From: an uncultured virus (IMG/VR IMGVR_UViG_3300005083_000004)
Taxonomy: Duplodnaviria > Heunggongvirae > Uroviricota > Caudoviricetes
DNA: 64,000 nt
Direction: 5' to 3' (one strand)
Virus record (IMG/VR): IMGVR_UViG_3300005083_000004
In this document: one piece after another, positions 4,570 through 34,513 of the stretch
How the letters are laid out: the number at the start of each line of letters is the position of its first letter
Position numbering within the stretch: position 1 is the stretch's first letter
Notes under the pieces: model-generated
What the model saw: the letters and a program-made list of their open reading frames with translations, nothing else
Told to the model about the DNA's origin: nothing
Databases searched by the model: none
Made by a program: the position numbers and the translations under genes

Positions 4570-5055
4570 ATGAAAATGATAATGTCAAATAACTGGGTAA
4601 AATTCGTTGCCCCTCAAAATTTTAAATATATTGGAGCGATTGTTGGAAATCCATTATTATCACCAAAATCTCATGAACGATATGGATTATACTCAGACGT
4701 GGTGGATCTTGACGCCGGTTCATTTTACCCATCATCGATAATCGTATGTAATACGTTTATGAATACGCTACTGTTTAAGGTTCGGGTACCGAATGACCAA
4801 TTCAGTCGAGGAATGATTGATAATTCATTTAATAATATAATCAATCTTAATGAACTTGAATTGGGTAATACTGACGAAGACAAAATTGATACTGAAGATT
4901 ATCAAGAAAATAAAGATGATAAAAATTATTATCTCAATGAATGTGGCGGGTATATTATGGATAACTATTCCACTAGAAATTGGTTAACAATTGGATATAA
5001 TCATTTAAATTATCCATCTATTGAACAAGTTTTAACAGAATTAGGTGAGGTATAA
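4570..5055 (+). CDS. polB: Family B DNA polymerase fragment carrying motif A
   Basis: YIGAIV..P and DLDAGSFYPSSIIVCN match PolB 'GAxV..P' and DxxSLYPS; own AAGGAG SD and TATATTAT motif at 4540. Confidence 0.75.
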   Translation: MKMIMSNNWVKFVAPQNFKYIGAIVGNPLLSPKSHERYGLYSDVVDLDAGSFYPSSIIVCNTFMNTLLFKVRVPNDQFSRGMIDNSFNNIINLNELELGNTDEDKIDTEDYQENKDDKNYYLNECGGYIMDNYSTRNWLTIGYNHLNYPSIEQVLTELGEV

Positions 5056-5057
5056 AT

Positions 5058-6383
5058 ATGGACCATTATTTTGAAAAAGATTATGATAAATTGAGATCGA
5101 CTAAATTTGTTATGAGAGATATATATCACTTTAAATGTGAATATTGTGGAGCTGATTGTAGAACTGAAGGAAGTAATTTAAGTAGATCTTTAAAATCAAA
5201 TATTAATAAAAAATTTCTATGTAAAGCATGTAACTCAACTGAAGCAAATAAAAATCGATGGAGTAATCCAGATAACAAGAAAAAACAATCTGAAAAACTA
5301 AAAAGTTATATTAATGGATTAACTGAAGAAGAGAAAAAACAAAGGTTAGATAAACTTGTTGATGGATTACACAATATGACTGATGAACAAAAAGCACTTC
5401 GATCAATTCAAAATTCTAATTCAGCAAAAAAGTTATATGAAAAATATGATAAAGAAGAATTAAATCAAAGACAACGAGAGAGATATCAATCTCTCTCACA
5501 ATTAGAAAAAGATAAAATTAGACAACGAAGTATTGATCAGTGGAATGATTCAGAATTAAGAAAACGGCAATCTGAAAATAGGAAACGATATTGGGAAAAT
5601 ATCACTTTAGAACAATTACAATCATTAGAAAATAAACGTATTGAATTTTATAAAAATCGATCACCAGAAGAGAAACAAGCTTTCTCAGATTTTATGTCAA
5701 ATCTTGGTAAACAATTATGGATTGATAAAACTCCAGAACNNNNNNNNNNNNNNNNNNNNNNNNNNNNNNNNNNNNNNNNNNNNNNNNNNNNNNNNNNNNN
5801 NNNNNNNNNNNNNNNNNNNNNNNNNNNNNNNNNNNNNNNNNNNNNNNNNNNNNNNNNNNNNNNNNNNNNNNNNNNNNNNNNNNNNNNNNNNNNNNNNNNN
5901 NNNNNNNNNNNNATATGGGTTAATAAACCAGAAGAAGAACTTCATATAATCAGACAACATCAATGTTTGAGTCGATTAGGAAGAATTGATAATGGTCATA
6001 AAGATATTAAATATAAATGGTTGATACAGTGGTTGGATGATAACAAAATTAAATATAGAACTGAGGAACCATATCTCAACGTAGAAATGATCAGAGATGA
6101 TGATGGATATATAATTCCTCCAAAACCATGGGACTTTGGAATATATAATAAAGATAATAAACTTGTATTACTGATTGATGTTGACGGAACTATTCATAAT
6201 GGGTCAATTGATAAATTATTATCAGAACGAGGATTAATGACAATACAAGAACGTGACAATAAACGAGTTATTCAACATGATCCAGATATTCCATATATCA
6301 TATTATATTATGATGATAATATGGAATATAACATCCAATCTGTTAAAGACTGTATTAAAGTAATAGAAAGAGTAATTTTATAA
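5058..6383 (+). CDS. Homing-endonuclease-like protein: Zn finger, helical repeats and C-terminal PD-(D/E)XK/Vsr-like nuclease; spans N gap 5740-5912
   Basis: CEYC/CKAC, repeated 'W.N...E..K..S' helices, WDFGIY..LLIDVDG..H..RDNKR. Confidence 0.65.
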   Translation: MDHYFEKDYDKLRSTKFVMRDIYHFKCEYCGADCRTEGSNLSRSLKSNINKKFLCKACNSTEANKNRWSNPDNKKKQSEKLKSYINGLTEEEKKQRLDKLVDGLHNMTDEQKALRSIQNSNSAKKLYEKYDKEELNQRQRERYQSLSQLEKDKIRQRSIDQWNDSELRKRQSENRKRYWENITLEQLQSLENKRIEFYKNRSPEEKQAFSDFMSNLGKQLWIDKTPEXXXXXXXXXXXXXXXXXXXXXXXXXXXXXXXXXXXXXXXXXXXXXXXXXXXXXXXXXXIWVNKPEEELHIIRQHQCLSRLGRIDNGHKDIKYKWLIQWLDDNKIKYRTEEPYLNVEMIRDDDGYIIPPKPWDFGIYNKDNKLVLLIDVDGTIHNGSIDKLLSERGLMTIQERDNKRVIQHDPDIPYIILYYDDNMEYNIQSVKDCIKVIERVIL

Positions 6384-6420
6384 TATTAATTATATTATGA
6401 AAATAAAGGAGAGAATTTCT

Positions 6421-7155
6421 ATGAATAAATTAAAAAAATTAATAACTAATATAACAGAAAAAATGAGTAATTCTTATATACCGGATGTTATATGGTCATT
6501 ATTATCACTTATTCCATCTTTATTGATATTCTTTTTCGTTGATAAAACGTTGTCTTATATCTTATATTTGATTCTTACTATACCATATTCAATTAAAAAA
6601 ATTTTTACACATTTTAGATATGAAGAAGATAAAATCATAAAATTAAATGATGATTATTTAGAAGAACTAAATCAAGGATTACAAAATTTACTTAATGGAG
6701 TAAGTAATGATCCAGATCAAGTTATGTTTAAAAAAGTTAATGATAAAAATGATATAAATGAATTTCTAAATTTCTTGCAAGGAATTAATCATAATTCGGA
6801 ATATGAGGAGCATCTAAATAATATATTAACCAATATAGATAATTATATTATGCAAGAATTTCAATCCAATAATTTAAATGGAATGGTTCAAATTAGTAAT
6901 AGTGATCATATTCATATGATAGGTTGGGTTTCCGAAGATATTCCAGTGGTAGTTATAAGATGTTATATAAAAAATATAAACGACCAAATGACATTTAAGT
7001 ATGATATATCAGTATTTAATGCATCTAATCAAACATTAGAACAAATTAATGAATCATCAGAATTAATAGTGAATACTGATGATATAGAATCATCTATTTC
7101 AGATCAAGTAACATACATCGTCAATGAAGTTAAAGAAATATATGAGGATGAATAA
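6421..7155 (+). CDS. Hypothetical membrane protein (ORF track start 6397)
   Basis: AAGGAG SD; two N-terminal hydrophobic segments. Confidence 0.55.
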   Translation: MNKLKKLITNITEKMSNSYIPDVIWSLLSLIPSLLIFFFVDKTLSYILYLILTIPYSIKKIFTHFRYEEDKIIKLNDDYLEELNQGLQNLLNGVSNDPDQVMFKKVNDKNDINEFLNFLQGINHNSEYEEHLNNILTNIDNYIMQEFQSNNLNGMVQISNSDHIHMIGWVSEDIPVVVIRCYIKNINDQMTFKYDISVFNASNQTLEQINESSELIVNTDDIESSISDQVTYIVNEVKEIYEDE

Positions 7156-7156
7156 T

Positions 7157-8221
7157 ATGAAAATATGTGTAACAGCAGATCTTCATATTGGTGCTGATTC
7201 TAATATTGATGCAGTAAGAACTGAATATTTACAATGTTTTCAAATGATGTTAGAACATAATCCTGATTTAATAGTATTCGCAGGAGATTTCTTTGATACT
7301 AAACTTTATATAAATTCACAATATACTGAATTGATATTTGAATTAATTCAGTATATATCTAATTTTGGGTGTAGAGTTCGATTAATTAGCGGAACATTAT
7401 CTCATGATGTTAATCAGTATATTTTATTTAAACCATATCTAAAATCTAATATTTTAATCATCAATAAAGTATATGAAGAAGTTATCAATGGTAGATCTAT
7501 TTTATATATACCTGAAGAAATAATCGGGGATAAGATAAAATATTATAATTCAACAATATACTCAAAATGTTATGATTATATATTTGGGCATGGTGTAATA
7601 TTAGAAGGAATGACAATGGTTAAAGATACTGAATCTAAACCTGGGATAAGAACAATACCCAAATTTCGATGTAAAGATTTTAATGTAAATTACTATTGTA
7701 TATTTGGACATTATCATCGTCACACAATTATGAGTGATAAATGTCGATATGTTGGAAGTTTATCACGAACTAGATTTGGTGAACCAGAAGAAAAAGGTTG
7801 GTATTATATAGAAGATGATAAAATTGAATTTCAAAAGAATATATTAGCTCCAGAATATTTATTATTTGAAATACCTGAAAATCAATCACTTGAAGAATTT
7901 GAAAATACATTAAAAAATATTTTAATTAATATTGATCAATATGAAGAAAGTAGAAATAAATATCGTTTATTATTAAAATATAATCGAGATAATGAATCAA
8001 TATCACAAATATTGAGTAAATTACAAGCTGTAATTTCTGAGAATCCGCAGATAAGTTATAAGATTGAATTTAATGATATTAATATAGATAAATCTGATGA
8101 GATACAAAATAAATATGAATATTTATTTGATAAATCATTATCAATTGGAGAAAAAATTACAATATTCCTAGATGGTGAAATTAGTATTGATGAAGTTGAA
8201 AAATTAATATCAGTGCATTAA
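7157..8221 (+). CDS. sbcD: SbcD/Mre11-family metallophosphoesterase nuclease
   Basis: ADLHIG, AGDFFD, GTLSHD, FGHG, FGHYH, YVGS..R..FGE..KG. Confidence 0.9.
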   Translation: MKICVTADLHIGADSNIDAVRTEYLQCFQMMLEHNPDLIVFAGDFFDTKLYINSQYTELIFELIQYISNFGCRVRLISGTLSHDVNQYILFKPYLKSNILIINKVYEEVINGRSILYIPEEIIGDKIKYYNSTIYSKCYDYIFGHGVILEGMTMVKDTESKPGIRTIPKFRCKDFNVNYYCIFGHYHRHTIMSDKCRYVGSLSRTRFGEPEEKGWYYIEDDKIEFQKNILAPEYLLFEIPENQSLEEFENTLKNILINIDQYEESRNKYRLLLKYNRDNESISQILSKLQAVISENPQISYKIEFNDINIDKSDEIQNKYEYLFDKSLSIGEKITIFLDGEISIDEVEKLISVH

Positions 8222-8240
8222 ATGCACTGATATTAATTTT
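8200..8240. terminator. Perfect 20-bp-arm inverted repeat between convergent genes
   Basis: aaaattaatatcagtgcatt-a-aatgcactgatattaatttt. Confidence 0.75.
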
Positions 8241-8251
8241 AAATAATATTT

Positions 8252-8578
8252 TCATACTGTTTTTATTTTTTTCTTATTTTTTATTTGTTTTGGTGGTTTT
8301 GGTGTATTATCAATTTCATAACACCATTTCCATATATATTGATCTGTTTGTCTATGATAATTTAATTCATATACTGTGGAAATCATATCATTTAATTTAA
8401 CTATTACTTGATCATTTAAATATAATTCATTTAATAATTCTTCATCTTTAAAATATTTCGATTGAAGTTTTCTAAAATCGTACCAATAAAGTTTAAATTG
8501 TTTTTCATCAACATCAAATATTCTTGGTATAATGCGAGCATTATTTAACTTCAGATTATCTTCATTATCAATAAACAT
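8252..8578 (-). CDS. Hypothetical protein
   Basis: 108-aa ORF with AAGGG SD, ending at the bidirectional hairpin. Confidence 0.6.
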   Translation of the reverse strand: MFIDNEDNLKLNNARIIPRIFDVDEKQFKLYWYDFRKLQSKYFKDEELLNELYLNDQVIVKLNDMISTVYELNYHRQTDQYIWKWCYEIDNTPKPPKQIKNKKKIKTV

Positions 8579-8652
8579 ATAACATTTCCCTTATTATTCA
8601 AAAACTTAATATATTAATATATTAGGTAATACACAGGAGATATTTAAATATT

Positions 8653-9177
8653 ATGGTAAAATCAAAATTAAATCAATTAACAGCAATATATGATTCATAT
8701 ATCGAATCAATTGATTTGGAAAAAGATATAGATATTAATAATGATGATATTGAAACAGATGTAATTATCATATCAGATGATGATTTTGATAATAACAATG
8801 ATTTCAATCAAAACGATATTGATATTATTGAATCGTTATTGAAATCTGAAAATGATGCATATTCAGATTATACCAATGCAATATCTGAATGTCAGGATGA
8901 CAGAATTCTAAAAGTGTTGGAGGATATTAGAACTGAAGAATTGAAACATCTTCAACAACTAGAATATCTTAAATCCAAAATTACTGGTAAAAAATATGAT
9001 GCTGTTTCATTAAAAATAAAAGATGAAACAGATGAATTGATTGCATCAGTGGTTCCATCTGAAGAAGTCAATAATGAAAATGAATTAGATGAAAAAGATG
9101 AAAATCCATTAAAAGTCACAGATGATGAAAATGATGAAGAAATAGAAGAATCTGCATTGTATTCTTTATATTTTTAA
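8653..9177 (+). CDS. Acidic protein with ferritin/rubrerythrin-like helix pair
   Basis: LLKSENDAYSDY...IRTEELKH (E..ExxH pattern). Confidence 0.55.
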   Translation: MVKSKLNQLTAIYDSYIESIDLEKDIDINNDDIETDVIIISDDDFDNNNDFNQNDIDIIESLLKSENDAYSDYTNAISECQDDRILKVLEDIRTEELKHLQQLEYLKSKITGKKYDAVSLKIKDETDELIASVVPSEEVNNENELDEKDENPLKVTDDENDEEIEESALYSLYF

Positions 9178-9185
9178 TTAAAAAT

Positions 9186-9215
9186 ATAAAGAACGGAGAT
9201 TTCTCCGTTCTTTAT
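9186..9215. terminator. Intrinsic (bidirectional-type) terminator
   Basis: ataaagaacggaga-tt-tctccgttctttat. Confidence 0.75.
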
Positions 9216-9269
9216 TAAAAAATACTTTTTTGTAAAGTAAACAATTTTATTTATTAAGGAGAGATTATA

Positions 9270-9800
9270 ATGAATTGTCATTGGTCTGGAAATTTTAAAA
9301 ATTATGTTGTTGATTTTATTCGAATTCATGATTATCATGCCAATCCAAATGATTATGACATAAAATATCCGATAACAATCGTTGATGCTATTCATGATGG
9401 TGAAGATCCTAGTTCAATTACATTACGTGAAATTTTGAATAAAATTAATTCGAAGTTATCTTTAAAACAACCGATTGTTGAAGCAGGATACAATTCTCAG
9501 ATATTAACAAGAACACCAACACGAGGTGTGTTAGGTTCATTAATGAGAGTTAGCGAAATTGTGCCCTCGAATATAAGGAGCAGCAGTCATATTCCAGATG
9601 AAATTGCAGTTGGTAATTATGTTGATAGGCTTGTTAACAAAATAAATGTTGATGTGGCTGAACTTCAATCAAAAGTTTCAGAACTCAAAACTAGATCTTG
9701 CGAAGATAAAGCACAAATTAATTCATTGAAAGAGGAAATTAATTGGATTAAATCTAAACTAGAAATTGGCGATACAACATTTATATTTGGAGGTAATTAA
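9270..9800 (+). CDS. Fibre/structural-type protein, paralogue 1 of 3
   Basis: DYDIKYPIT..D, ILT....G.L..L, RSS..IPDE.AVG shared with the next two genes; C-terminal coiled coil. Confidence 0.6.
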   Translation: MNCHWSGNFKNYVVDFIRIHDYHANPNDYDIKYPITIVDAIHDGEDPSSITLREILNKINSKLSLKQPIVEAGYNSQILTRTPTRGVLGSLMRVSEIVPSNIRSSSHIPDEIAVGNYVDRLVNKINVDVAELQSKVSELKTRSCEDKAQINSLKEEINWIKSKLEIGDTTFIFGGN

Positions 9801-9802
9801 TA

Positions 9803-10507
9803 ATGATAAATTGTAATTGTAACACAGGTGATACAAGTAATCTTATTTGTATTCTTAAAGAAGATTTAAAGAGATATCATAAATTCCCTGATGGTCATTA
9901 TAATAATGATTATGATATTATTTTGCCAAGAACAACATTTGACCAAGTTAGAATCAGCCAAGATAAAACATCTGATACTTTAACTAAAGTAATTCATAGA
10001 TTAAGTTGTGCGGTCGAGAAGCGTCAATATGTTATTAATGAAGGAACAAATGATGATATATTAACTAAAACAGCGGTTAAAGGTCAACTTGATACTTTAT
10101 TAAAAGTTGATTCAGTTGAAAAAGACCCTGATAACCGTAGTTCTCGTAAAGTTCCAAGTGAAGTTGCAGTTGGTGAAATTTATGATATTGCTAAAGATTC
10201 CACAACAAAAGCAACTGAAGCTCTTGATATTCTTATAACCGATGATACAAGAATTTCAAGTCTCGAAACTAAATCTGCAAATGATGATGTAAGAATTTCG
10301 ACTCTTGAAATTAAATCTGCTAATGATAATGCAAGGATAGCTCTTCTTGAAACTAGAGTTTCTAATCTTGAATCTCAAGTCGCAATATTAACTGCCGCAA
10401 TTGACTCAATCAATACAACTTTGGGGACTGGTAGTAATACTGATGATGGCACTACAGATGGCACAGATGATACTACTACCGAAGGTGAAGGTACTTGCCC
10501 ATGTTAA
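9803..10507 (+). CDS. Fibre/structural-type protein, paralogue 2 of 3
   Basis: DYDIILPRTTFDQV...RSSRKVPSEVAVG; RISxLE heptad repeats. Confidence 0.6.
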   Translation: MINCNCNTGDTSNLICILKEDLKRYHKFPDGHYNNDYDIILPRTTFDQVRISQDKTSDTLTKVIHRLSCAVEKRQYVINEGTNDDILTKTAVKGQLDTLLKVDSVEKDPDNRSSRKVPSEVAVGEIYDIAKDSTTKATEALDILITDDTRISSLETKSANDDVRISTLEIKSANDNARIALLETRVSNLESQVAILTAAIDSINTTLGTGSNTDDGTTDGTDDTTTEGEGTCPC

Positions 10508-11655
10508 GTAATTATATGGATTATGAATACAACATAGATGATCATCTTGTTAGTATCATTAAAGAAGATCTAACAAGATATCATAAATATCCTGACGGTA
10601 CTTATAGTACAGATTATGATATTATTTTACCAAGAACAACATTTGACCAAGTTAGAGTTAATGCAAGTAAATCTTCTAATAATTTAAGTACTATAATTCA
10701 TGATTTAAATTGTGCAGTCGAGAAGCGTCAATATATTATAGGTGAAGGTTCACCTGATGATATATTAACTAAATCAAAATTTAAAGGTCAACTTGATACT
10801 TTGTTAAAAGTTAATGTTGTTGCTGAAGATCCAAGTGAACGTAGTTCTCGGAGAATTCCAAGTGAACTTGCAGTTGGAGATATTTATGATATTGCTAAAG
10901 ATGCGGTGATGAAGGCATCTCATGCTCTCAATGCACTTGTAAATGATAACAATAGAATTGAATCATTAGAAACTAATATTTTTGATATAATAAAATCTCA
11001 AGATAATAAAAAATTCGGTTATATAGCTACTGAAGGGATTGATAATAAAACAGTTAAAATTGCTAAATATGATGTTAATACTCATGGTAAAAAACAAGTT
11101 TATAGTTTGATACTTAAGGGTGATAAATACGTTACATTCAAATGTGGTGATCATAAGCATAATCCAGAATTAACAATAGATGTTAATCTTTCAAGCAGAA
11201 TTAATAAAAATACTTTTGCTAGTACAAATGATCTTGTATTAGGTGATATGACAATTACTCCTAATACAGATGAAAATGGTATAGCAACTATTACTAAAGT
11301 AGCAACAAATGTGAAAGGGGATCATAATAAAGATACAACATCATTTGTTAAGATTGTATCTGAAGATGGCACTATTACTGGAACATTATGTGAAGTTGGT
11401 GTTGATCAATATAAGTTTAATCTTATATCAACGAATCCAAAGAAGAAAAGTATAACATTTAGTAATCCTGGATCTGATGGATATTTTGAGTTTAATCATG
11501 GTCTTGGAACTAGTGATGTTGTTGTTAGTATTCGTAATATAGATACAAATCAAATTGAACAGTTTGATACTGTTATTACATCTGATAATGTTGTTTCATT
11601 AATTAATATTGATTCATCTGTTACAGGAAATTATCGTATAACTGTTATTGGATAA
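10501..11655 (+). CDS. Fibre/structural-type protein, paralogue 3 of 3 (ORF track start 10495)
   Basis: N-terminal ~150 aa highly similar to 9803 protein; C-terminal FNHGLGT..V.V...YRITVIG fibre-tip-like domain. Confidence 0.6.
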   Translation: MLSNYMDYEYNIDDHLVSIIKEDLTRYHKYPDGTYSTDYDIILPRTTFDQVRVNASKSSNNLSTIIHDLNCAVEKRQYIIGEGSPDDILTKSKFKGQLDTLLKVNVVAEDPSERSSRRIPSELAVGDIYDIAKDAVMKASHALNALVNDNNRIESLETNIFDIIKSQDNKKFGYIATEGIDNKTVKIAKYDVNTHGKKQVYSLILKGDKYVTFKCGDHKHNPELTIDVNLSSRINKNTFASTNDLVLGDMTITPNTDENGIATITKVATNVKGDHNKDTTSFVKIVSEDGTITGTLCEVGVDQYKFNLISTNPKKKSITFSNPGSDGYFEFNHGLGTSDVVVSIRNIDTNQIEQFDTVITSDNVVSLINIDSSVTGNYRITVIG

Positions 11656-11691
11656 ATATATTCCTCGTTTAGTTTGTTTAATTATCAACTA

Positions 11692-11721
11692 AAAATGAAG
11701 GAGATTACTCTCCTTCATTTT
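11692..11721. terminator. Intrinsic terminator
   Basis: aaaatgaaggaga-ttac-tctccttcatttt. Confidence 0.75.
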
Positions 11722-11813
11722 ATTATTTTAAGCAATTGATTTTCTCAGGATGATCATGTATTCATTGGGAATTATTGTTACCAAGAACGAAATGCATGGT
11801 AATTATTAAAAAA

Positions 11814-11842
11814 TGGGAAGTCGAAAGACTTCCTTTTTTTTT
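11814..11842 (+). terminator. Intrinsic terminator with GAAA tetraloop
   Basis: ggaagtc-gaaa-gacttcc followed by T-tract. Confidence 0.75.
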
Positions 11843-11886
11843 AATTTATTTTTTGATTTTCAATATTAGTATATAATTAAAAAAAA

Positions 11887-13728
11887 TTAATAATATCTAG
11901 CTATCCATTGTGATAGTGTTTCTCCAGTTGATTTATAATGACCTCTGGTATCACCTGTTGTAAATGATAAATACATATCGATTTTAGGCATCATTTCAAT
12001 TACTTTTATATCATTATCATATGTTGCTAATGTATTTTGGTCAATTTTAGAATTTGGATTAGTATTTTGATAAAATCGAATATCAACAAATGGAGGTCCA
12101 ACAAATCGTTTTATACCAGTTGCCATAGTTTTAGTATCTGCGTTAAATGCATTATTAATATCTGCTGTCACATTAGATAATTTATTAAATGCTATTAAGT
12201 CCCTCAGATCATTATCTCTAAATCCTTGATGCTTAAATGTTACATCTGTTAGAATTCTTGTATCTAATATATCTGAATCAACATTTTTTGCTAATATACT
12301 TGATCCATCTGAAATTGGAAATACCCCAAAATATTTTCTATGTGATAAAATTCTTCCAGAAGTTGTATCAGTCCAGAATATATAAATTGATGCTGCATAA
12401 TCTAATATATCAAACAATATCGGGTTGTTAAATTTGGTAAACCCACCACCACTATCAACATCAATACATGGCCAATGATTTCCAACATATGTATGATGCA
12501 TATATAATATCCACAATTGTAATATTTTCATTGTCTCAAATCCTGCTGTTTCTCTAAATTGAATATTTAAATCTCCACCATCTCTATTCATTTTTTTACT
12601 ATAGAAAACATTTATACCATCATAGTTTTTTAATGAAGCTCTTGTATCTATTGTATTTCCTTGATTAACAAATCCTATTGCTTGATTTGATAAATATAAA
12701 TTAATATTTGTCGAGTCTTTAGATCGTCCCATATCAATTAATGATCTTCCAACTTGAGGATGAGACAATAATATATTTTTCATTTCTGATAAATATGGAT
12801 TATTCATTATATTTGAATGAATTTTCAATATTGATGTATCATTGGTTGTACTAATTCTTTCATATAAATACAAATCGGGTTTAGTTATAAATATATGATA
12901 CTTTGCATTTCTTAATGCAGTATCCAATATAGCTTTCTTAGTATAATTATAAAAATAATACTCAAATGCTTTTGCCATTTTTTCAGTTTTCAATAATGGA
13001 TCTAATCCCATCTCATATCTAATTTGCGATATTGTTTTACCTCCAATTGGAAGTATTCTATCATCATTCCAATCGGGTTGATGATAATTACTTACTGATT
13101 TCGAATCATCGCCCCATTGTCTAACTTTTTTATTATATTCATAATTATAATTTTGACTATCATTAACATGTGGAAGCCACATTCCAGCTCCTCTTGCATT
13201 CGCATCGTGATAATAACCTATACCTTCATTAATGTTCTTATCAAATGTAATATGATTCATTTTAACATCATTAGCAACACCAATTCGATATTTTGATTCT
13301 TTGGTATCATATATTAATGTTAAACCAATATTTCTCATAGCGTCATATGTTTCACGACTTAAATATTTTGTATTACCGGAAACACCATCATTTTTTGATA
13401 ATATTGTTGTATCATCACTAAATTTAATTGTTTTCCAAGATATATTTTTAACAGGAGCTCGATAAATACTTGAAGTAGATTCAGTTTGTTGAAATGTAGG
13501 TGTTTGAGATGTATTATAACTTTTTTGTGTTTGTTGTTGTCCTGTACTATAATTATTACCTGATTCAAATTGATTATCAAGATCTTCAGATATTAAAGTT
13601 TTTCGAGATTGAAAATATGAATTTGCATTTGTGATTATTTTAGATGCATCTGCAGGTGATAATGTATTTGTATTTGCAACGATTTGTTTAGGTCCTACAA
13701 AATCTTCAGGATAATATGTTGTATCCAT
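11887..13728 (-). CDS. Virion structural protein (baseplate/tail-tube-like)
   Basis: IFITKPDL, DYAASIYIF, KYFGVFP patterns recalled from jumbo-phage tail proteins; preceded by late-type motif. Confidence 0.45.
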   Translation of the reverse strand: MDTTYYPEDFVGPKQIVANTNTLSPADASKIITNANSYFQSRKTLISEDLDNQFESGNNYSTGQQQTQKSYNTSQTPTFQQTESTSSIYRAPVKNISWKTIKFSDDTTILSKNDGVSGNTKYLSRETYDAMRNIGLTLIYDTKESKYRIGVANDVKMNHITFDKNINEGIGYYHDANARGAGMWLPHVNDSQNYNYEYNKKVRQWGDDSKSVSNYHQPDWNDDRILPIGGKTISQIRYEMGLDPLLKTEKMAKAFEYYFYNYTKKAILDTALRNAKYHIFITKPDLYLYERISTTNDTSILKIHSNIMNNPYLSEMKNILLSHPQVGRSLIDMGRSKDSTNINLYLSNQAIGFVNQGNTIDTRASLKNYDGINVFYSKKMNRDGGDLNIQFRETAGFETMKILQLWILYMHHTYVGNHWPCIDVDSGGGFTKFNNPILFDILDYAASIYIFWTDTTSGRILSHRKYFGVFPISDGSSILAKNVDSDILDTRILTDVTFKHQGFRDNDLRDLIAFNKLSNVTADINNAFNADTKTMATGIKRFVGPPFVDIRFYQNTNPNSKIDQNTLATYDNDIKVIEMMPKIDMYLSFTTGDTRGHYKSTGETLSQWIARYY

Positions 13729-13865
13729 TATCTATTAATCTCCTTTATTTTAAAAAATGTTATCTGAAAAGTTTTTAATAATAATTAAATAAATTTTATT
13801 AAAAAATTATTAATTATATATAATATACTTGATATTTATAAATAAATATAGGAGAAATTAAATAT

Positions 13866-14687
13866 ATGATACAAACAAAAAGATTTCATAGTCTGATTAA
13901 TGAAATTTATTCAGATTCTTTTAAAAGAGATTTGATAGATTTTTCTAATGATACAATTATTGATTCCATGATAAAACAAGATCAACTTTTTCAATTATTT
14001 AGAACACATAATATTGATGCAATTCCGTTAGGAGCCGGAACTAATCGAATTGGGGTAAAGATAGGTAATTATTGTCATAAATTTGCATATAATATTGAAG
14101 GATATGTTGATAGCCAAAGGGAATTTGCCATATGCCCAAGTATCTTGAAATATGGTGATGATGTTGTAAAAATACATGAAATAACTATTGATGGAAGTAT
14201 TGAAATCTGTGAATATATTCAATCATTTTCTTCACTAAGTGAAATGTCTCAATATCAAGAAGAGATAATCAATATTCTTCGAAAATGGGGTAATAAATAT
14301 TTAATTGGTGATATCGGATTAACCGCTAAGAATTGTCGGAATTGGGGTATTACTTTAACTGGTAAGGTCAAATGTTTAGATTTCGCATATTTCTTTTTAT
14401 GTGATATAAAAGTATTTAAATGTTTTAAATGTGGAGCGAGTATGCAATATAATAATATATTCACGGAATTAGAATGCCCAAGATGTTCAAATAAAGAATC
14501 TTTTGATTCATTAAGGAAATTAATTGATGTTGATAATATCGATTATAACAAAATGATTCAACAAGTTGGTTATAAAATGAACTCAAATTTTGAGAATCAT
14601 GAAATTAAAGATAAATCATTATATCCAAATGATTTATATGATCCAAAAGAGTTTGAAAAATTAATTGAGGAGAGTTATAAATTATGA
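13866..14687 (+). CDS. Protein-kinase-like protein with C-terminal Zn ribbon
   Basis: LGAGTNR G-loop, HK..E, GDIG....NWG catalytic-loop-like segment, LDFAY, then CFKC/CPRC. Confidence 0.65.
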   Translation: MIQTKRFHSLINEIYSDSFKRDLIDFSNDTIIDSMIKQDQLFQLFRTHNIDAIPLGAGTNRIGVKIGNYCHKFAYNIEGYVDSQREFAICPSILKYGDDVVKIHEITIDGSIEICEYIQSFSSLSEMSQYQEEIINILRKWGNKYLIGDIGLTAKNCRNWGITLTGKVKCLDFAYFFLCDIKVFKCFKCGASMQYNNIFTELECPRCSNKESFDSLRKLIDVDNIDYNKMIQQVGYKMNSNFENHEIKDKSLYPNDLYDPKEFEKLIEESYKL

Positions 14688-18128: not shown

Positions 18129-18147
18129 AATTATATATTATATATAT
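18129..18147 (+). promoter_or_regulatory. Putative early promoter driving the ncRNA
   Basis: aattatatattatatatatgaata is identical to the element at 56600. Confidence 0.6.
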
Positions 18148-20958: not shown

Positions 20959-22410
20959 TTATTTTAAAAACACGTTTAAATTTAATAATGAAAATGGATT
21001 GATCTTAATAGCAACTTTATTATTTATTGCATTGATTCCCATGTAATATAATGGATCATAATTTTCAAATACTTTCTGTAATTCTGGAAATGGTATAGAA
21101 AATAAATTTAATGTATCTCCATCGAAATCGGCATGTAATCCTGGTAATGGTGAATATCCTAATGCCATGCAATAGTTATTTGGATCTTTATTTATTCTAC
21201 GAATATTCATGAGTTGAAATGATTCGTAATTTAATGATGGATTTCGATTTATTAATATTTTTGGATGATATTTTTCCAATATTCGATCACATAATTCATA
21301 TAAGTATTCATTACCATCATTAGAATTAAGCTGAAGATAATTATATGCATTAAATAACGGAACTTTTTTATCATTCATTATTTCTTTAATCAACCAATTT
21401 TTATAAAACACAGTTGCTAACGGAAATCCAATATCTATTTCATTACATTGTAAAGTTGGATCCAGAGTAATAACATTTCTTGATGAATAATTATAATTGC
21501 CTCCTAAAATTGATGATCGAATATGACCATTTTTTCCTTTAATTAGTTTAAATACTTCATCCCAAATTTTATTGATATGATTTTGAATCGAATATAAAGT
21601 GATTACGACTTCTGATAATGTAAATTTAGGTAGTAATTCAATTGATGAACAAATCGGATTAATATGTTTATCAATGGATGTAAATGAGTATGCTCCATTA
21701 TTTATAGAAATTGGTCGTAAGCATGTACTATAAACTGGAAAACATGATGTCCATATATATTCTTTATTATTGATCAAATTCTCAACTCTTTCAGGATTCT
21801 TTTTATTTCCAAATGCTGTTATAATTTCATCAAAATTTTCATAAAATTGAATTAATCCAATATTATAATATTGATTCATTTTTTTAAGTTGACGACGACT
21901 TTTAATAACGATTTCTTCATGAATATCATGTGTATTTCCATCTTGATCATACATATTATCATATCTAATTATATTATCTAAGTTTTTTGAACCAATGACA
22001 GATTCTAATATTTTATAATACCTTGGATGAATTACTTTATATGGGCCCCAATATAACCACCCTGTTTTTGTAATATCAAATGCTGAATATTCAACTTTAG
22101 TATGACATAATGGACATTCTTCACCTTCAAACATTGCTCCAATTATTTCACCACATTCACAGTGATATCTTTCCATAAATGAAAAATCATCCCCGTATCC
22201 ACTACCAAATTTTATTGACCGAGGACCATCAATATTTTTAATTTTATTATATACATCATTAAATGCTCTTTTATTTATCATAAATCCTTTTCCGGTCATT
22301 AGATCAAAATTCATTTGAGCATCACAATTGATTGGTCTAAGAATCACAGATTTTTTAATGTTTTCATTATCATCAAATAAATCCTCTAATTTTTGTATTT
22401 TTCTTGACAT
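20959..22410 (-). CDS. rpoC: Multisubunit RNA polymerase beta' N-terminal subunit with catalytic loop
   Basis: CECG..CPLC Zn site, KGKNGHIR, SSRNVI, NRNPSL, HADFDGD. Confidence 0.92.
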   Translation of the reverse strand: MSRKIQKLEDLFDDNENIKKSVILRPINCDAQMNFDLMTGKGFMINKRAFNDVYNKIKNIDGPRSIKFGSGYGDDFSFMERYHCECGEIIGAMFEGEECPLCHTKVEYSAFDITKTGWLYWGPYKVIHPRYYKILESVIGSKNLDNIIRYDNMYDQDGNTHDIHEEIVIKSRRQLKKMNQYYNIGLIQFYENFDEIITAFGNKKNPERVENLINNKEYIWTSCFPVYSTCLRPISINNGAYSFTSIDKHINPICSSIELLPKFTLSEVVITLYSIQNHINKIWDEVFKLIKGKNGHIRSSILGGNYNYSSRNVITLDPTLQCNEIDIGFPLATVFYKNWLIKEIMNDKKVPLFNAYNYLQLNSNDGNEYLYELCDRILEKYHPKILINRNPSLNYESFQLMNIRRINKDPNNYCMALGYSPLPGLHADFDGDTLNLFSIPFPELQKVFENYDPLYYMGINAINNKVAIKINPFSLLNLNVFLK

Positions 22411-24295: not shown

Positions 24296-24327
24296 CATCG
24301 TAATGAATTTAATAAGAGGGAATCAAA

Positions 24328-24508: not shown

Positions 24509-24527
24509 ATTTTATTAATTAATGAAA

Positions 24528-26965: not shown

Positions 26966-27007
26966 AATTTTACTTGTCCTCCAGTAAGATTAAAAAATTT
27001 TAGTATA

Positions 27008-28807: not shown

Positions 28808-28953
28808 AATTATAATATATCTCCTAATATTCTATAATGTTATCATGAGAGTTTTTATGAAAAAAGAGTTAAAAAATCAATTATGTTAATCATTCAAAGG
28901 ATTTAACTAAAACAAATTTAATAACATTAAACTATATTTAGGAGAGTTATATT

Positions 28954-29421
28954 ATGTTTAAAATATTAATAAATCAATATTTGACAGAAAAGGAATTTCA
29001 ACAAATTGATGATGAAATTGATGACATATTAGATAGTGAATTTAATTCAATATACAGTGATATGGAAGATGATGCATTAGATGATATTGAATTGGGCACT
29101 AGTGATTATTTGGTATTTGTTGATGATGATTCATCTGAAGCGGAATCTGAAGATTTACAAACTGTTGTAGCAGTCGACGATTCTGATATTGATAAAGGAG
29201 AAGATGAATTAGATGATATATCTGATACAGAACTTGATACTATAATTAAAGATGAAATCTTTGGAGATGCAATTAAAGACGATGATATCGTTATAACAGA
29301 TGATCAGGTTACTACAGCTGGAAACATTGCTGATAAAGTTGAAGTTGTATCTGATACAACAACCCTAGATACACCAATTGATGATACAATTGAAGAATCA
29401 GTATATCTTGTTTTTAAATAA
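28954..29421 (+). CDS. Highly acidic protein (scaffold/internal-protein or DNA-mimic-like)
   Basis: Very D/E-rich 155-aa ORF with AGGAG SD. Confidence 0.6.
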   Translation: MFKILINQYLTEKEFQQIDDEIDDILDSEFNSIYSDMEDDALDDIELGTSDYLVFVDDDSSEAESEDLQTVVAVDDSDIDKGEDELDDISDTELDTIIKDEIFGDAIKDDDIVITDDQVTTAGNIADKVEVVSDTTTLDTPIDDTIEESVYLVFK

Positions 29422-29427
29422 ATAATT

Positions 29428-29461
29428 AAATATTAATGGGAGAAATCTCCCATTAATATTT
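29428..29461. terminator. Terminator
   Basis: aaatattaatgggaga-aa-tctcccattaatattt. Confidence 0.75.
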
Positions 29462-29562
29462 TTTATAAATTTAAAATTAACTAAATATTAGTTAGAGTAA
29501 CTACTGGGATAATTATATATTATTTAATAGAAAAAATAAAATAATTTATTTGGAGGACAATA

Positions 29563-31974
29563 ATGAAATTTACAGATGATAAAATGGAACATCTGAAAAC
29601 TGACATATCTAAAATTCGTGTACGACCTGCAATGTATATTAGTTTTATTGGTGATTTAGGAGTATTACATTGTTTAAAAGAAATTTTAAATAATGCTATC
29701 GATGAAGTCATCAATCCAAGATCTCCAGCAACATCTATATCAATTCAATATTATGAGAATGATGATAAAATTATTGTATCCGATGATGGTAGAGGAATGC
29801 CAGCTAAAGAATTGGATCAAATATTAACTCATTTGAATTATGGATCAAATATTAATGCCGACGACAAAAAAGATTTAAAGTTATCGGTATTGGGGACAAA
29901 TGGTGTTGGAACATTAGCATATACTGCATTAGCAAAACAATTAACTATTATAACATTTCGTAGCGGAAGTGTTGAAGGTAATGTATGTCGAAAATTAATT
30001 TATCAAGAAGGACAATTAATTGAAGATAGTGGAATTATACCGTGTAAGAAAGGTCAACATGGAACAATTATTGAATGGCAATGTAGTCAATTAGTATTAG
30101 GAAAGAATGCAAAGATTCCATTAGATAAATTCAAAGAGTGGTTAACTAATGTTCAATTTCAATTTGAAAAACAATTTAAAATCACTTTAGATTGTTATGA
30201 CTCTGATAATATAAAAACATCAATTGTGTATAAAACACAACCATTTATCAATATACTTACATTACGGAATAATAAAAAAGATATTGGTACCGATATTGTT
30301 TATTTCCAAAAAATAGGTGAATGTATTGAAAATAAACCAGATAAAAATTATAATCGTTATATGATTTATGATATAGCATTTGCATATATAAATTCAAATG
30401 TTACTCCTTACATTGATTCATTTTGTAATGGCAGTAATACAATTGATGGAGGATCCCATCTTGATATAGTTATAGAATGTATTAATCGATATTTTCAAAA
30501 TCGAGTAAAACAAGGATTATCAGACAAAGAAAAAGAAAAGTTGGATATTAAATGGGAAGATATCCAATTAGGTTTAACAATAGCCATTAATTTTAGATGT
30601 AATACAGGAGAATGGTTTACATCTCAAACAAAACATAAATTGTATATTCCAGAAAGTATTGTAAAATACATGAAGGATTTAGTAAATAATGGATTAGAAA
30701 AATATTTTAATGATAATCCAAATGTTTATAAACAAATGGCAGCTATTATCAAATTAAATTCAAAAGCACGTACTGAAGGTGAGAAAATAAAGAATTCTGT
30801 AATGAAAGAAAGAGTTCAAAAATGGGATCAATTCAGTATGAATAATTTTAAACCTTGTGCAAATAAAGGATTGAACTCATATAAAGAATTATTTATAGTT
30901 GAAGGAATTTCAGCACAAGGAACTATTGGTAAAGGAAATGATCCTCAATATCAAGCTATAATGTCAATTAGAGGTATGCCAAAAAATATTTATGGGTTAT
31001 CAGTAAATAAAATTTTGGAGAATAAAGAATTTCATGATTTAATTAAAATTATGGGATGTAATATAGGTGATAAATTCGATATAACAAAATTAAATTATAA
31101 TAAGATAATTATTGCAACAGACGCAGATGCAGATGGTTATCAAATTCGTAGTTTGTTGTGCTATTTCTTCTTTGTATTATTTCCTGAAATTATTAAACAA
31201 GGAAGATTATATGTTGCAGATCCCCCATTATATAAATTACAAGATAAAAATAATGAATTCATTACAAATAAAAAGAAGTATATTGAATTATGTTTTGATC
31301 GAATTAAACATAAATATGATATCGGTTTAAATGGTGATATGAATCCATCAGATCAATTAAGAAAATTCTTTGATGATACAAGAAATTATTTGACTGAATT
31401 AAATAATATGAGCAAATATCGAAAAATTCCATCTGAAGTATTAGAAGATATATGGTTTTATATTGCTGAAAATTGCAATAAATCAGATGATAATATTAAT
31501 ATTAACTTAACTGAAAAATATCCTGAAATTGTTTATGATCGGATAACAAAAGTATTATCAGGTGTTGTAAATTATAATTATATTAGAATCATATTGGATA
31601 AACGGACAATTGATTCATTTTGGAATAATATTATATTATTAAAAAAATATGGTTCAATGATTTATTTAATTGATAAACAATCAAGAGAAAATAAAGTTGT
31701 TCGGATTAGTCAAGTTCTAGAAGCTTTTGCGAATTGTTATATTAAAATACTGCATCGATATAAAGGATTAGGTGAATCAGCTGAATCGACATTATGGGAG
31801 ACTAGTTTGAATCCGTTAACACGAACATTGATCAAAGTCGACTATAATGATATAAATGAAACTATATCATTATTTCATTTATGCCACGGAAAAGGTGAAA
31901 TTAATATAAAATCTAGAACTGAATTGTGGTTCAATAGTGGTAGAATAATAGATCCTGATTTAATTGATAATTAA
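29563..31974 (+). CDS. gyrB: Type IIA topoisomerase/gyrase B subunit
   Basis: IRVRPAMYI, EILNNAIDE, DDGRGMP, GTNGVG, VEGISA, TDADADG, RYKGLGE. Confidence 0.95.
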   Translation: MKFTDDKMEHLKTDISKIRVRPAMYISFIGDLGVLHCLKEILNNAIDEVINPRSPATSISIQYYENDDKIIVSDDGRGMPAKELDQILTHLNYGSNINADDKKDLKLSVLGTNGVGTLAYTALAKQLTIITFRSGSVEGNVCRKLIYQEGQLIEDSGIIPCKKGQHGTIIEWQCSQLVLGKNAKIPLDKFKEWLTNVQFQFEKQFKITLDCYDSDNIKTSIVYKTQPFINILTLRNNKKDIGTDIVYFQKIGECIENKPDKNYNRYMIYDIAFAYINSNVTPYIDSFCNGSNTIDGGSHLDIVIECINRYFQNRVKQGLSDKEKEKLDIKWEDIQLGLTIAINFRCNTGEWFTSQTKHKLYIPESIVKYMKDLVNNGLEKYFNDNPNVYKQMAAIIKLNSKARTEGEKIKNSVMKERVQKWDQFSMNNFKPCANKGLNSYKELFIVEGISAQGTIGKGNDPQYQAIMSIRGMPKNIYGLSVNKILENKEFHDLIKIMGCNIGDKFDITKLNYNKIIIATDADADGYQIRSLLCYFFFVLFPEIIKQGRLYVADPPLYKLQDKNNEFITNKKKYIELCFDRIKHKYDIGLNGDMNPSDQLRKFFDDTRNYLTELNNMSKYRKIPSEVLEDIWFYIAENCNKSDDNININLTEKYPEIVYDRITKVLSGVVNYNYIRIILDKRTIDSFWNNIILLKKYGSMIYLIDKQSRENKVVRISQVLEAFANCYIKILHRYKGLGESAESTLWETSLNPLTRTLIKVDYNDINETISLFHLCHGKGEINIKSRTELWFNSGRIIDPDLIDN

Positions 31975-32032
31975 TATATTATTTTATATTAAATGACATA
32001 TATAATTAAAATGTTAATGGAGTATTTAAAAA

Positions 32033-32347
32033 ATGAAAAAATTAATGAATTGCCCAATATGTCGTTCAGTACAAATTAAAATTGATCGTAAGAGAATTAT
32101 ATGTCATAATTGTAGAAATTATTTGTATTTAACTAAAATAGAGAAAATTAAAATCGATTATAATAAATACAATAGTCGATTTTATTATAAGTATTATTTT
32201 AAATATTTAAAAGAGGATGATAGTTGTCAGTCAAATTGTAATGATATTTGTCTGTCAGATTGTGATGAAGTGTGTGCAAAATATGATACATTACTTAATA
32301 ATTTAAAGCATTTTAAAGGAGTAGAATATAATGAAGATAACGTATAA
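32033..32347 (+). CDS. Cys-rich Zn-ribbon protein
   Basis: CPIC..CHNC plus C-terminal Cys cluster. Confidence 0.55.
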   Translation: MKKLMNCPICRSVQIKIDRKRIICHNCRNYLYLTKIEKIKIDYNKYNSRFYYKYYFKYLKEDDSCQSNCNDICLSDCDEVCAKYDTLLNNLKHFKGVEYNEDNV

Positions 32348-33056
32348 ATATAAACAAAATCTCTGTGACAAGATTACAGATAATCCGCTATTCAATAATA
32401 TTTTTAATAGTTATTGGGAAATTGATGTGGGTAATTGTTTGAGTTCAGATTTGATAGTTCTTCGAGAATTTTTAAAACTCAACATATCTGTTAGTCCTCA
32501 AAGTAATAAAAAATACGATATTAATATAATATCAATTGACAATCCAAATATAGATTTTGATACTATTGTAAATCAGATTGAGAATATAGATACTATTTTT
32601 GCAGATTTATATGATAATACATCACATAATGCTTTATTAATTAAAAATGATAAATTAAAAATAGATAGTGAAAATTACTTAATAGGATTTGATATAACAA
32701 TTCATTGTGATGATCTTAAATCAGATCATAAATTTATATTAATATTTAATGATAGTAATTATATTGAAACTATTATGAAAATAAGATCATTAACAAATAT
32801 AACAAAAATACTTGTTTCACGAATTATATATTCCCCAATAAATCCGGAAAGTTTTATATATGTACCAAATATAATCGGACATTTACATTTTATTGATAAA
32901 GAACAGAATTGTTGTTGGGTAATTATAAAAAGATGGTGTTTCACCTTCGTAGATAAATCATTAGATTCAATATTAAATACACCTCAATCAGATAATGATG
33001 ATATATATGAATTAATATTGAAAGATATTTTTCAGAAAGATGAAGAATCGGAATAA
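32331..33056 (+). CDS. Hypothetical protein
   Basis: AAGGAG SD, 241 aa. Confidence 0.6.
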   Translation: MKITYKYKQNLCDKITDNPLFNNIFNSYWEIDVGNCLSSDLIVLREFLKLNISVSPQSNKKYDINIISIDNPNIDFDTIVNQIENIDTIFADLYDNTSHNALLIKNDKLKIDSENYLIGFDITIHCDDLKSDHKFILIFNDSNYIETIMKIRSLTNITKILVSRIIYSPINPESFIYVPNIIGHLHFIDKEQNCCWVIIKRWCFTFVDKSLDSILNTPQSDNDDIYELILKDIFQKDEESE

Positions 33057-33148
33057 TATAAAAAACAATGAAGGTTATTACCTTCATTATTTTTTTATAG
33101 TTATATATTTTATTATTGAAAATTAATTCTAATATGGAGAAATAAAAT

Positions 33149-34513
33149 ATGAGAAATATTAATTCATTGCCGTATATCATACATAATGACTGTATGTTAT
33201 TCGATGTTAGATATATGAAGTATAATACTGAACCTAAATATCCAGAACATTTTGAAGTAATTTATAGAGATTTAGTAACTAAAGAAAAATATTTAGAAAT
33301 ATGGGAAAATCCATTAATACCTATTTATTTCACTAAACCGGAATTTCGAAATTATCAATATAATAAATATGGTGAAAGTTTGGATAAACTTTATAAAGTA
33401 TTAGTTAAACCATCTGAAGTATTAAAGACTATTGCATTGGATAAAGGAGACAGTGCAGTTAAGTTCTATAATGATTGTATAAGAAATAAAAATTTTCAAT
33501 TAGCAAATGAGTTATTTAGATATCAATATTCTTATTTTGCTGATTTTCCACCAGATTTTTATTATAGAATATGGTGGAAATTAAATACGATAAATCGTTA
33601 TACACCATATACACATAATGCATTTTCTGATATTGAGGTTGACACTCTTGATAGTGAATTTAGTTCAGTTGATCAAGTTGTTAAATATGCTGAATGTCCA
33701 ATTAATATCATTACATTAATTGATGAAATAACAAAAGATTCTCATTCATTTTGTTTAATACCAACTGGAAGAGATGATAAATTTCATAAACAACAACAAA
33801 AAGATTATTTTAATTTAATTGATCATTTAGATGAATTTAAAAAAGAATTGACAGATGAATTTAAGATATATGGTGATTTTAAATTTCATTTTCATTGGTA
33901 TAATGAAGAAGATGAATTAAAAATGATCATTGATTATTTTAAATTAATTAATAAAATCAAATTTGATTTTGTTGTATTTTGGAATATGTCATTTGATATA
34001 CCTTATATGTTAAATCGAATTAAAGTTCTCGGTGGATATCCAGAAGATATTGTTTGTCATAATGATTTTCCTGTAAAAAAATATTTTTATAAATATGATT
34101 CAAATAATTTTGTACCACAATTAAAGAAAGATTTTTTCAGTTGTAATAGTTATACACAGTATTATTGTCAGATGTTATTATATGCCAAAATCCGTAAAGC
34201 TCAAATTAAACGTGGATATTCATTGAATGCTATTGCGAGCGATGAATTAGGTGATAAAAAACTATCATATTCTGATGAAGGATATACTATTGAAAATTTA
34301 GCATATTTAAATTATAAAAAATTCATTAAATATAATATTAAAGATGTCATTCTTCAACTTGGTATAAATGCTACAACAGATGATTTAAATTATTTTTGGT
34401 TGACATCTGATATGAATTTGACTTGTTTAGAAAAAATGTTTAGTAATACAACATTTGTCCGTCATTATACTGCATTTACATTCGCACAACAAGAAAAAGA
34501 TTTTATTATATAA
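33149..34513 (+). CDS. polB: Family B DNA polymerase N-terminal 3'-5' exonuclease subunit, lacking motif A
   Basis: ExoI SDIEVD, ExoII FWNMSFDIPYM, YSLNAIA..ELG, ExoIII YNIKDV. Confidence 0.88.
   Translation: MRNINSLPYIIHNDCMLFDVRYMKYNTEPKYPEHFEVIYRDLVTKEKYLEIWENPLIPIYFTKPEFRNYQYNKYGESLDKLYKVLVKPSEVLKTIALDKGDSAVKFYNDCIRNKNFQLANELFRYQYSYFADFPPDFYYRIWWKLNTINRYTPYTHNAFSDIEVDTLDSEFSSVDQVVKYAECPINIITLIDEITKDSHSFCLIPTGRDDKFHKQQQKDYFNLIDHLDEFKKELTDEFKIYGDFKFHFHWYNEEDELKMIIDYFKLINKIKFDFVVFWNMSFDIPYMLNRIKVLGGYPEDIVCHNDFPVKKYFYKYDSNNFVPQLKKDFFSCNSYTQYYCQMLLYAKIRKAQIKRGYSLNAIASDELGDKKLSYSDEGYTIENLAYLNYKKFIKYNIKDVILQLGINATTDDLNYFWLTSDMNLTCLEKMFSNTTFVRHYTAFTFAQQEKDFII

Follow-up and report, generated by a model that had tools for sequence, protein, structure and literature searches.

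The stretch of DNA analysed here, which we call the window, is 64,000 nucleotides (nt) out of a 180,450-bp metagenome contig of an uncultured virus (IMGVR_UViG_3300005083_000004), and it is AT-rich jumbo phage DNA of the AR9/phiKZ kind. Two open reading frames (ORFs) in this window, with 28,093 nt between them, are the subject of the analysis. The ORF at 33149-34513 codes for the N-terminal domain and the 3'-5' exonuclease of a family-B DNA polymerase (PolB), and the ORF at 4570-5055 codes for a small palm piece with motif A. We refer to them as the exonuclease piece and the small piece, and their coordinates are collected with those of the other features in Table 1. The original prediction for this window was that the two are contiguous halves of one subunit. 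We now regard their homology to a single subunit, as well as the exact position of the cut, as almost certain.

Family-B polymerases are usually single chains. That phages related to phiKZ divide PolB into two polypeptides was already taken as established in the original prediction and has been shown experimentally, with DNAP-N (gp82, 638 amino acids, aa) and DNAP-C (gp50, 731 aa) forming a stable, active 1:1 complex (PMC13648687). There DNAP-N unites the N-terminal domain and the exonuclease with the first palm segment, on which motif A is located, and the D562A mutant of DNAP-N is the polymerase-dead control; DNAP-C comprises the remaining palm, the fingers and the thumb. The phiKZ cut lies inside a palm-insertion domain to which DNAP-N contributes residues 589-638 and DNAP-C two segments (PMC13648687). 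The annotated counterparts of the two proteins are g170 and g167 in phiR1-37 and, for AR9, g132. The window pieces belong to the same divergent PolB lineage, with the exonuclease and motif A placed N-terminal to a DNAP-C that would be separate, as it is in the phiKZ system, where it carries the second catalytic aspartate (motif C). The distance between the window's pieces also has a parallel, given that the DNAP-N and DNAP-C genes are far apart in the relatives G003 and G004. Unlike in phiKZ, the DNAP-N of the window is itself cut at the boundary between the N-terminal domain and the palm, into pieces of 454 and about 160 aa.

The exonuclease piece matches the Pfam family PF03104 (DNA_pol_B_exo1) with 33.7 bits, where the cut-off is 23 (E 3.3e-8), and the profile phrog_3011, 'DNA polymerase', with E 1.5e-37 over profile positions 44-439 of 576. 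The ORF is as it had been described, ending in ...FAQQEKDFII and holding the motifs ExoI (DxE), ExoII (NxxxFD) and ExoIII (YxxxD), whose residues D161/E163, N279/D283 and Y395/D399 are invariant in a 26-row alignment. The AlphaFold model made with this alignment (AF2) has a mean predicted local distance difference test (pLDDT) of 89.5 and a predicted template modelling score (pTM) of 0.88, and only residues 1-6 and 450-452 fall below a pLDDT of 50; at the C-terminus disorder is limited to about the last seven residues. Residues 13-454 of the model superpose on residues 1-380 of RB69 gp43 (Z 29.9, root-mean-square deviation 3.1 Å, 360 residues aligned). The RB69 palm domain presumably begins at about residue 383, thus a model that ends at RB69 380 places the end of the gene at the N-terminal-domain/palm boundary. 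Residues 14-445 also superpose on 2-370 of the chain of Protein Data Bank (PDB) entry 1noy (Z 27.6), a 388-residue N-terminal fragment from the T4 family, in which the N-terminal domain and the exonuclease are stable alone and which has the same end point. We take 1noy to be a piece of T4 gp43 made in the laboratory and not the product of a natural gene. Based on these models, the exonuclease piece is predicted to fold autonomously.

The small piece is also as originally described, in that it starts with MKMIMSNN and carries GAIVGNP and the motif A sequence DLDAGSFYPS (general form DxxSLYPS). Its sole match among the PHROGs, to phrog_262 (E 0.013, positions 382-429 of 856), falls just after the match of the exonuclease ORF on the same profile (109-355). 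Residues D46, D48, Y53 and P54 are invariant across 14 stand-alone small proteins that we describe below, and a profile of four relatives of the small piece finds archaeal PolB structures, which it matches in the region of motif A (E 2.4e-4). An hhalign comparison of residues 39-161 with phiKZ gp82 553-633 places D48 on D562 in what is a weak match (E 0.029, probability 1.7%). The C-terminal segment, from about residue 120 to 161, is conserved and has predicted helices at 125-134, 138-145 and 151-160. This segment has a weak alignment to that stretch of phiKZ DNAP-N which goes into the palm-insertion domain.

The claim that the two ORFs are contiguous halves of one subunit is borne out by their end-to-end alignment to phiR1-37 g170 and AR9 g132. 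The exonuclease ORF matches phiR1-37 at record positions 114033-115232 and the small ORF at 115239-115478, which puts the two matches 6 nt apart within the single gene g170, a 576-aa 'B-family DNA-polymerase'. To judge from these matches, the placement of the small ORF next to the exonuclease match is not a chance one. In the reverse search (tblastn), g170 residues 48-447 led to window positions 33308-34495 and residues 450-529 to 4579-4800 (E 4e-4). The 554-aa AR9 g132, whose annotation reads 'DnaQ-like exonuclease and partial catalytic domain', likewise matched the exonuclease ORF with residues 34-421 and the small ORF with residues 431-508 (E 3e-3). Combined, the two ORFs cover residues 48-529 of 576 in g170 and 34-508 of 554 in g132. 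The cut itself can be read from an alignment with 13 single-chain relatives, where the fused forms read ...YLKQG-YVIGNN... at the junction. The window reads ...FAQQEKDFII(stop) / MKMIMSNN..., and the nearest relative reads ...EFQQE(stop) in the database protein P0031 / MKYIVGNN in the database protein P0007. No conserved residue is lost at the junction, and at most five residues (KDFII versus KMIMS) can be read as a short overlap. The cut sits about 48 residues ahead of the motif-A aspartate.

Each of the two genes has its own signals for translation. A GGAG stands 9 nt ahead of ATG 33149 in the exonuclease-piece gene. In the small-piece gene the GGAG at 4564-4567 is 2 nt ahead of ATG 4570 and 8 nt ahead of ATG 4576, and the true start may be the latter, because of its 8-nt spacing and its agreement with the source gene call P0005 (159 aa). 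Apart from this possible shift of the start, the claim of a separate Shine-Dalgarno sequence and promoter-like motif for the small gene holds, the motif being TATATTAT at 4540-4547. Work on AR9 and MarsHill gives TATATTAT as their early-promoter consensus (10.1101/2020.12.14.422802), and the TATATTTT ahead of the exonuclease-piece gene is one mismatch away from it. The window motif also matches the annotated early promoter ahead of AR9 g132. The 64 kb hold two exact copies of the 10-mer GTTATATATT, one at 4536 and the other at 33100; with one mismatch allowed there is no enrichment, with 43 found versus 43.8 expected from shuffles. Of the 22 copies of the 9-mer TTATATATT in the window, 10 fall into intergenic DNA, which makes up 6.7% of the window. 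Nine of these 10 copies are 33-132 nt upstream of same-strand gene starts, and the tenth, at 18131, has no nearby downstream gene. The genes behind them include both polymerase pieces, topoisomerase II, SbcC, ligase and a GroEL-like protein. It is the intergenic placement of the 9-mer that suggests TTATATATT(AT) as a candidate AR9-type early promoter. The two pieces may thus be co-expressed as early genes, and we put this cautiously because the AT-rich composition of intergenic DNA inflates motif counts. Ahead of the exonuclease-piece gene, the hairpin at 33067-33088 would close the upstream transcription unit; three terminator-like sites were found in the region of this gene versus 0.3 expected from shuffles.

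For relatives of the split type the evidence comes from protein databases. When the small protein was compared by phmmer with 1.84 billion cluster representatives, 17 matches were obtained at E<=1e-3, five of them single chains of 623-642 aa that are matched near their C-termini and 12 of them short (111-281 aa). Two of the short proteins, P0006 (176 aa, MPYIICNN) and P0007 (145 aa, MKYIVGNN), start where the small piece of the window starts, and P0011 (176 aa) starts 17 residues earlier. A profile search with the small piece found 15 proteins, namely the window's own, one 100-aa partial and 13 others from metagenomes that are complete, stand alone and have 145-181 aa. Ten P0011-like proteins start 8-25 residues ahead of GGILSNN, within the same linker. 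The Pfam family PF00136 is matched at E<=0.01 by 10 of the 14 stand-alone small proteins, the window's own not being among them.

At E<=1e-10, searching with the exonuclease piece yielded 422 homologues, and lengths were counted for the best 120 of these 422: 104 are fused (596-644 aa) and 16, including the query, are shorter. The closest homologue among the best 120 is P0031 (423 aa, 44% identity, E 4e-111, the next being 1e-87), which ends in ...EFQQE, at the cut of the window. The contigs of P0031 and P0007 have one and the same source, and the length given for each is 4,756 bp. Ten shorter homologues were inspected, a set that leaves out P0055, P0076, P0125, P0131 and P0137. Seven of the ten end in ...KF(A/S)GAFN, P0111 ends ten residues past GNN, and the end of P0112 comes earlier. 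A quick maximum-likelihood tree places the four stand-alone rows, with the window's included, in one clade with a Shimodaira-Hasegawa-like approximate likelihood ratio test (SH-aLRT) value of 96, and this clade is nested in a 15-row clade (SH-aLRT 98) otherwise made up of single chains. Judging from these sequences, the cut is not peculiar to the window genome and is common to a small clade. The objection raised with the original prediction, that a separate gene for the motif-A piece might be the norm among homologues, is therefore right for this clade and wrong for the family at large, in which 104 of the best 120 homologues are fused. A cut that is inherited argues for function.

A second clade of short motif-A proteins (P0008, P0010 and P0020; SH-aLRT 99) was seen on contigs of 0.9-15 kb. 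P0008 (215 aa) starts just past the ExoIII motif, and about 100 N-terminal residues of P0010 (231 aa) do not look polymerase-like by eye. These proteins may have other cut sites or be mere fragments.

Among relatives in IMG/VR, which were scanned with fused forms or with the exonuclease piece, all DNAP-N genes are single-chain or interrupted by an endonuclease. Of 15 such loci, 13 were matched at full length and two only up to residue 447. L028 is single-chain with a 506-aa ORF, and nine further loci are single-chain with ORFs of 607-683 aa. Scans of viral, metagenome and genome contigs with alignments of the small piece likewise turned up nothing but fused forms. L029, L031, L036 and their siblings form a more distant clade (28-33% identity), with a DNAP-N of 607-683 aa directly followed by an ORF of 754-771 aa. 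In L029, L031 and L036 these latter ORFs match neither the DNAP-C of G003 and G004 nor the window.

The third subunit would be encoded elsewhere. Motif B (KxxxNSxYG) and motif C (DTD) are in neither ORF, and their absence from the window, which had been noted before, agrees with tblastn searches in which three DNAP-C queries found only noise. Such an absence would be expected with motifs B and C carried by a separate DNAP-C. In G003 and G004 the DNAP-C gene is 45-57 kb away from that of DNAP-N, and given this separation a 64-kb window with no DNAP-C is unremarkable.

The mechanism we propose is as follows. DNAP-N would be divided at the boundary between the N-terminal domain and the palm into two independently translated genes. 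One would supply a self-folding module of 454 aa, consisting of the N-terminal domain and the proofreading exonuclease, and the other a piece of about 160 aa with the motif-A catalytic aspartate and a C-terminal helical segment. Both would be made early in infection from the same class of promoter and would assemble non-covalently with a DNAP-C encoded outside the window, giving a polymerase/exonuclease core of three polypeptides. [quoted passage not shown] We consider a functional, non-covalently assembled three-chain enzyme to be likely. Its physical assembly and activity, the time at which its genes are expressed, and whether and in what form the window genome encodes DNAP-C are the parts that we infer.

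Several points weigh against this proposal. The evidence for the window genome consists of sequence and predicted models. The small piece matches no Pfam family at E<=0.1, its AlphaFold model when folded alone is poor (pLDDT 46.8), and its anchoring through a palm-insertion domain is an analogy, since the alignment with gp82 is weak. A tblastn search of the window with phiR1-37 g167 and the DNAP-C frames of G003 and G004 (647 and 666 aa) found no DNAP-C. The count of at least three pieces is derived from the known architecture of the family, because the DNAP-C gene lies outside the window seen. Exonuclease partners are assigned to the small proteins of the window and P0007 and to none of the other stand-alone proteins, and in the case of P0007 the sharing of a contig with P0031 is deduced from the matching source and length of 4,756 bp. 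The tree is a quick one built from full-length rows, with four of the 14 stand-alone proteins and with short rows that fill about one quarter of its 590 columns. A complex prediction for the exonuclease piece and the small piece, made with alignments, scored 0.10 against a mark of 0.32, which speaks neither for nor against binding.

The alternative that survives best is one in which the exonuclease piece acts apart, free or loosely bound, and the catalytic core is made of the small piece and DNAP-C. It could draw on the predicted ability of the exonuclease piece to fold alone, on its match to the isolated 388-residue fragment 1noy, and on the C-terminal segment of the small piece, whose counterpart in the alignment to phiKZ DNAP-N is the region that folds together with DNAP-C. 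However, the N-terminal domain and exonuclease form one body with the palm in all the matched solved family-B polymerases, and we find a separate exonuclease unlikely. Slightly less probable still is that one or both ORFs are remnants of a decaying gene, with replication being done by another polymerase or by a second intact copy elsewhere. The small ORF does score poorly against general profiles, and about two thirds of the 180-kb contig is outside the window. On the other hand, both reading frames are open and of full length, and all the catalytic residues of the exonuclease and of motif A are kept. No other DNA polymerase was found among the 43 other window ORFs covered by a PHROGs scan (E<=1e-5). 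The same cut is also found in proteins that are only 33-44% identical to those of the window, which argues for a long survival under selection.

The three-chain enzyme also has to be set against a product that is rejoined into a single DNAP-N chain, by the halves of a trans-spliced intron or by a split intein. Intervening elements do hit this region in relatives. In a gut-type relative (L010:10001-12698; also L009) about 0.85 kb interrupts DNAP-N after ...KFAGAF, with an ORF for an HNH-type endonuclease at 11543-12115 and DNAP-N resuming in the ORF 12333-12698. This insertion explains the ...GAFN class of short homologues, the seven of the ten inspected that end at the L010 interruption point, and the region about 25 residues downstream of the window's cut looks like a hot spot for introns and homing endonucleases. 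Another break is found in Bacillus phage vB_BpuM-BpSp (L003:3902-5915), where DNAP-N is present as gp207 (318 aa) and gp206 (258 aa) with a gap of 280 nt. It lies inside the exonuclease region, away from the cut of the window, and is probably an intron or a frameshift. Intron-disrupted polymerase genes are reported for AR9-like phages as well (10.1101/2020.12.14.422802). The interrupted DNAP-N genes of L010/L009, of Staphylococcus phages like MarsHill and of BpSp show the same gene and neighbourhood being hit, with halves that are adjacent around an inserted element or gap and are presumably spliced. Unlike these, the window has no remaining element and its halves are autonomous genes, each with its own start codon, Shine-Dalgarno sequence and promoter-like motif.

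The details at the break also argue against splicing. Rfam, which detects described families only, has no match in the whole window at gathering thresholds and none at E<=1 in 34300-34800 and 4300-4700, and merely 35 nt lie between the upstream stop (4534) and ATG 4570. A split intein needs about 100 extra residues after the N-extein, about 35 before the C-extein and a nucleophile at +1. It has no room here, because the alignment runs end to end without leftover residues: the small piece begins at the junction in the alignment, and no more than five residues separate this junction from the end of the exonuclease piece. With no intein residues in the junction alignment and no Rfam match, the break has no detectable intein or intron of a described family at its flanks, as the original prediction had it, and we regard rejoining by splicing as very improbable. 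An assembly artefact is just as improbable: the window does come from a metagenome contig, which could be chimeric or mis-joined, but at a domain boundary a mis-join would not yield a clean stop together with a start codon, a Shine-Dalgarno sequence and a promoter-like motif. The two genes are also embedded in tight same-strand arrays, and independent relatives from other samples share the cut.

The history of the cut may be sketched from the same comparisons. A cut that is common to proteins of 33-44% identity and nested among single chains points to a single fission in an ancestor of the stand-alone clade. If P0031 and P0007 do share a 4.7-kb contig, the halves would first have been close to each other and would have been separated later in the lineage of the window. 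In relatives, DNAP-N is flanked upstream by an SbcC-like gene and downstream by that of a virion protein. The counterparts of these neighbours in the window are at 40803 (SbcC-like) and 20088 (virion protein), in a different order, and this difference around DNAP-N is consistent with rearrangement. The flanks of the small-piece gene have no counterparts at the DNAP-N loci of relatives. An inserted element like the HNH gene of L010 is a plausible trigger of the fission, though the window keeps no trace of one.

A comparison may also be made with gp43A/gp43B of the Aeromonas phages 25 and 44RR, which is reportedly cut in the fingers and not at the N-terminal-domain/palm boundary. Like the pieces of the window, it is a separately encoded family-B replicative polymerase that does without splicing, and gp43A and gp43B of the T4-related phage 25 co-purify and are active. 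Unlike in the window, there are two pieces, from adjacent genes with an untranslated spacer or a seg endonuclease gene between them (Petrov et al. 2010, described in PMC2988022). We found no report of a family-B polymerase with its N-terminal subunit divided again in open-access papers and bioRxiv. Iyer et al. 2021 deal with a divergent group-1 PolB, and the accessible part of that text mentions no further cut (PMC7824862). The further division of the N-terminal subunit is conserved and apparently undescribed, and in mechanism it extends the known theme of the split polymerase.

The remaining genes of the window are in keeping with its assignment to the jumbo phages. The PHROGs scan identified three pieces of the split multisubunit RNA polymerase (Table 1), as well as NrdD, topoisomerase II, SbcC, SbcD, an NAD-dependent ligase and a GroEL-like chaperonin. 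A 53-aa ORF begins 15 nt past the exonuclease-piece gene and is followed by a helicase gene. The ORF directly upstream of the small-piece gene matched no Pfam family. It contains DPFSGFSGR and TCPPY, which to us resemble the S-adenosylmethionine-binding and catalytic motifs of DNA N-methyltransferases. The ORF downstream of the small-piece gene has CxxC...CxxC near its N-terminus, long charged helical repeats and a C-terminal ...WDFGIY...LIDVDGTIH. That C-terminal segment is, in our view, reminiscent of PD-(D/E)xK/Vsr-like nucleases, for which Pfam and PHROGs give no support, and a homing endonuclease was rejected for this ORF as it has no Pfam or PHROGs match.

Table 1. Features of the window, with the two polymerase pieces and their signals given first
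Feature	Position	Strand	Remarks
N-terminal domain and 3'-5' exonuclease piece of family-B DNA polymerase, 454 aa	33149..34513	+	
Small palm piece with GAIVGNP and motif A DLDAGSFYPS, 161 aa (159 aa from ATG 4576)	4570..5055	+	
Early-promoter-like GTTATATATTAT, holds exact TATATTAT at 4540-4547	4536..4547	+	33 nt before ATG 4570
Early-promoter-like GTTATATATTTT, holds TATATTTT at 33104-33111	33100..33111	+	48 nt before start codon
TTATATATT(AT) upstream of same-strand genes	73, 3060, 4537, 22474(-), 29513, 33101, 40752, 56602, 58959		mostly replication genes
Terminator-like hairpin followed by T run, 9-pair stem with 3 G-C pairs	33067..33088	+	precedes motif of exonuclease-piece gene
470-aa ORF directly upstream of small-piece gene	3122-4534	+	phrog_12517 (function unknown), E 3.6e-7
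441-aa ORF starting 3 nt past stop of small-piece gene	5058-6383	+	N-masked stretch 5740-5912
Split multisubunit RNA-polymerase piece	20962-22410	-	PHROGs scan
Split multisubunit RNA-polymerase piece	44774-46477	+	PHROGs scan
Split multisubunit RNA-polymerase piece	57533-58897	-	PHROGs scan
2048-aa ORF	49370-55516	+	no PHROGs match at E<=1e-5

These findings have some relevance for annotation. Where sources include the piece of about 160 aa, they label it 'hypothetical' or give it no name, and the copy in the window escapes Pfam. A more far-reaching reading, which we hold as tentative and rather doubtful, is that of a replicase which, in this clade of uncultured AR9/phiKZ-like phages, is a natural heterotrimer cut at two domain boundaries, with a motif-A mini-subunit of about 160 aa locked into DNAP-C and a detachable proofreading subunit. 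If that were true, the proofreader would be functionally more like the epsilon subunit of Pol III than like the built-in exonuclease of a family-B polymerase, and the phage could tune its fidelity or swap the proofreader. The two-chain enzyme of phiKZ was itself solved only in 2026. If the three-piece enzyme is real, folding and assembly would involve separable units, namely the module for proofreading, the palm's first segment and the body of fingers, palm and thumb, and the window would offer a natural test case for an active site built from a 160-residue peptide and a second chain. It would also mean that the gene fission of jumbo phages, which is known for the subunits of their RNA polymerases, reaches the replicase.

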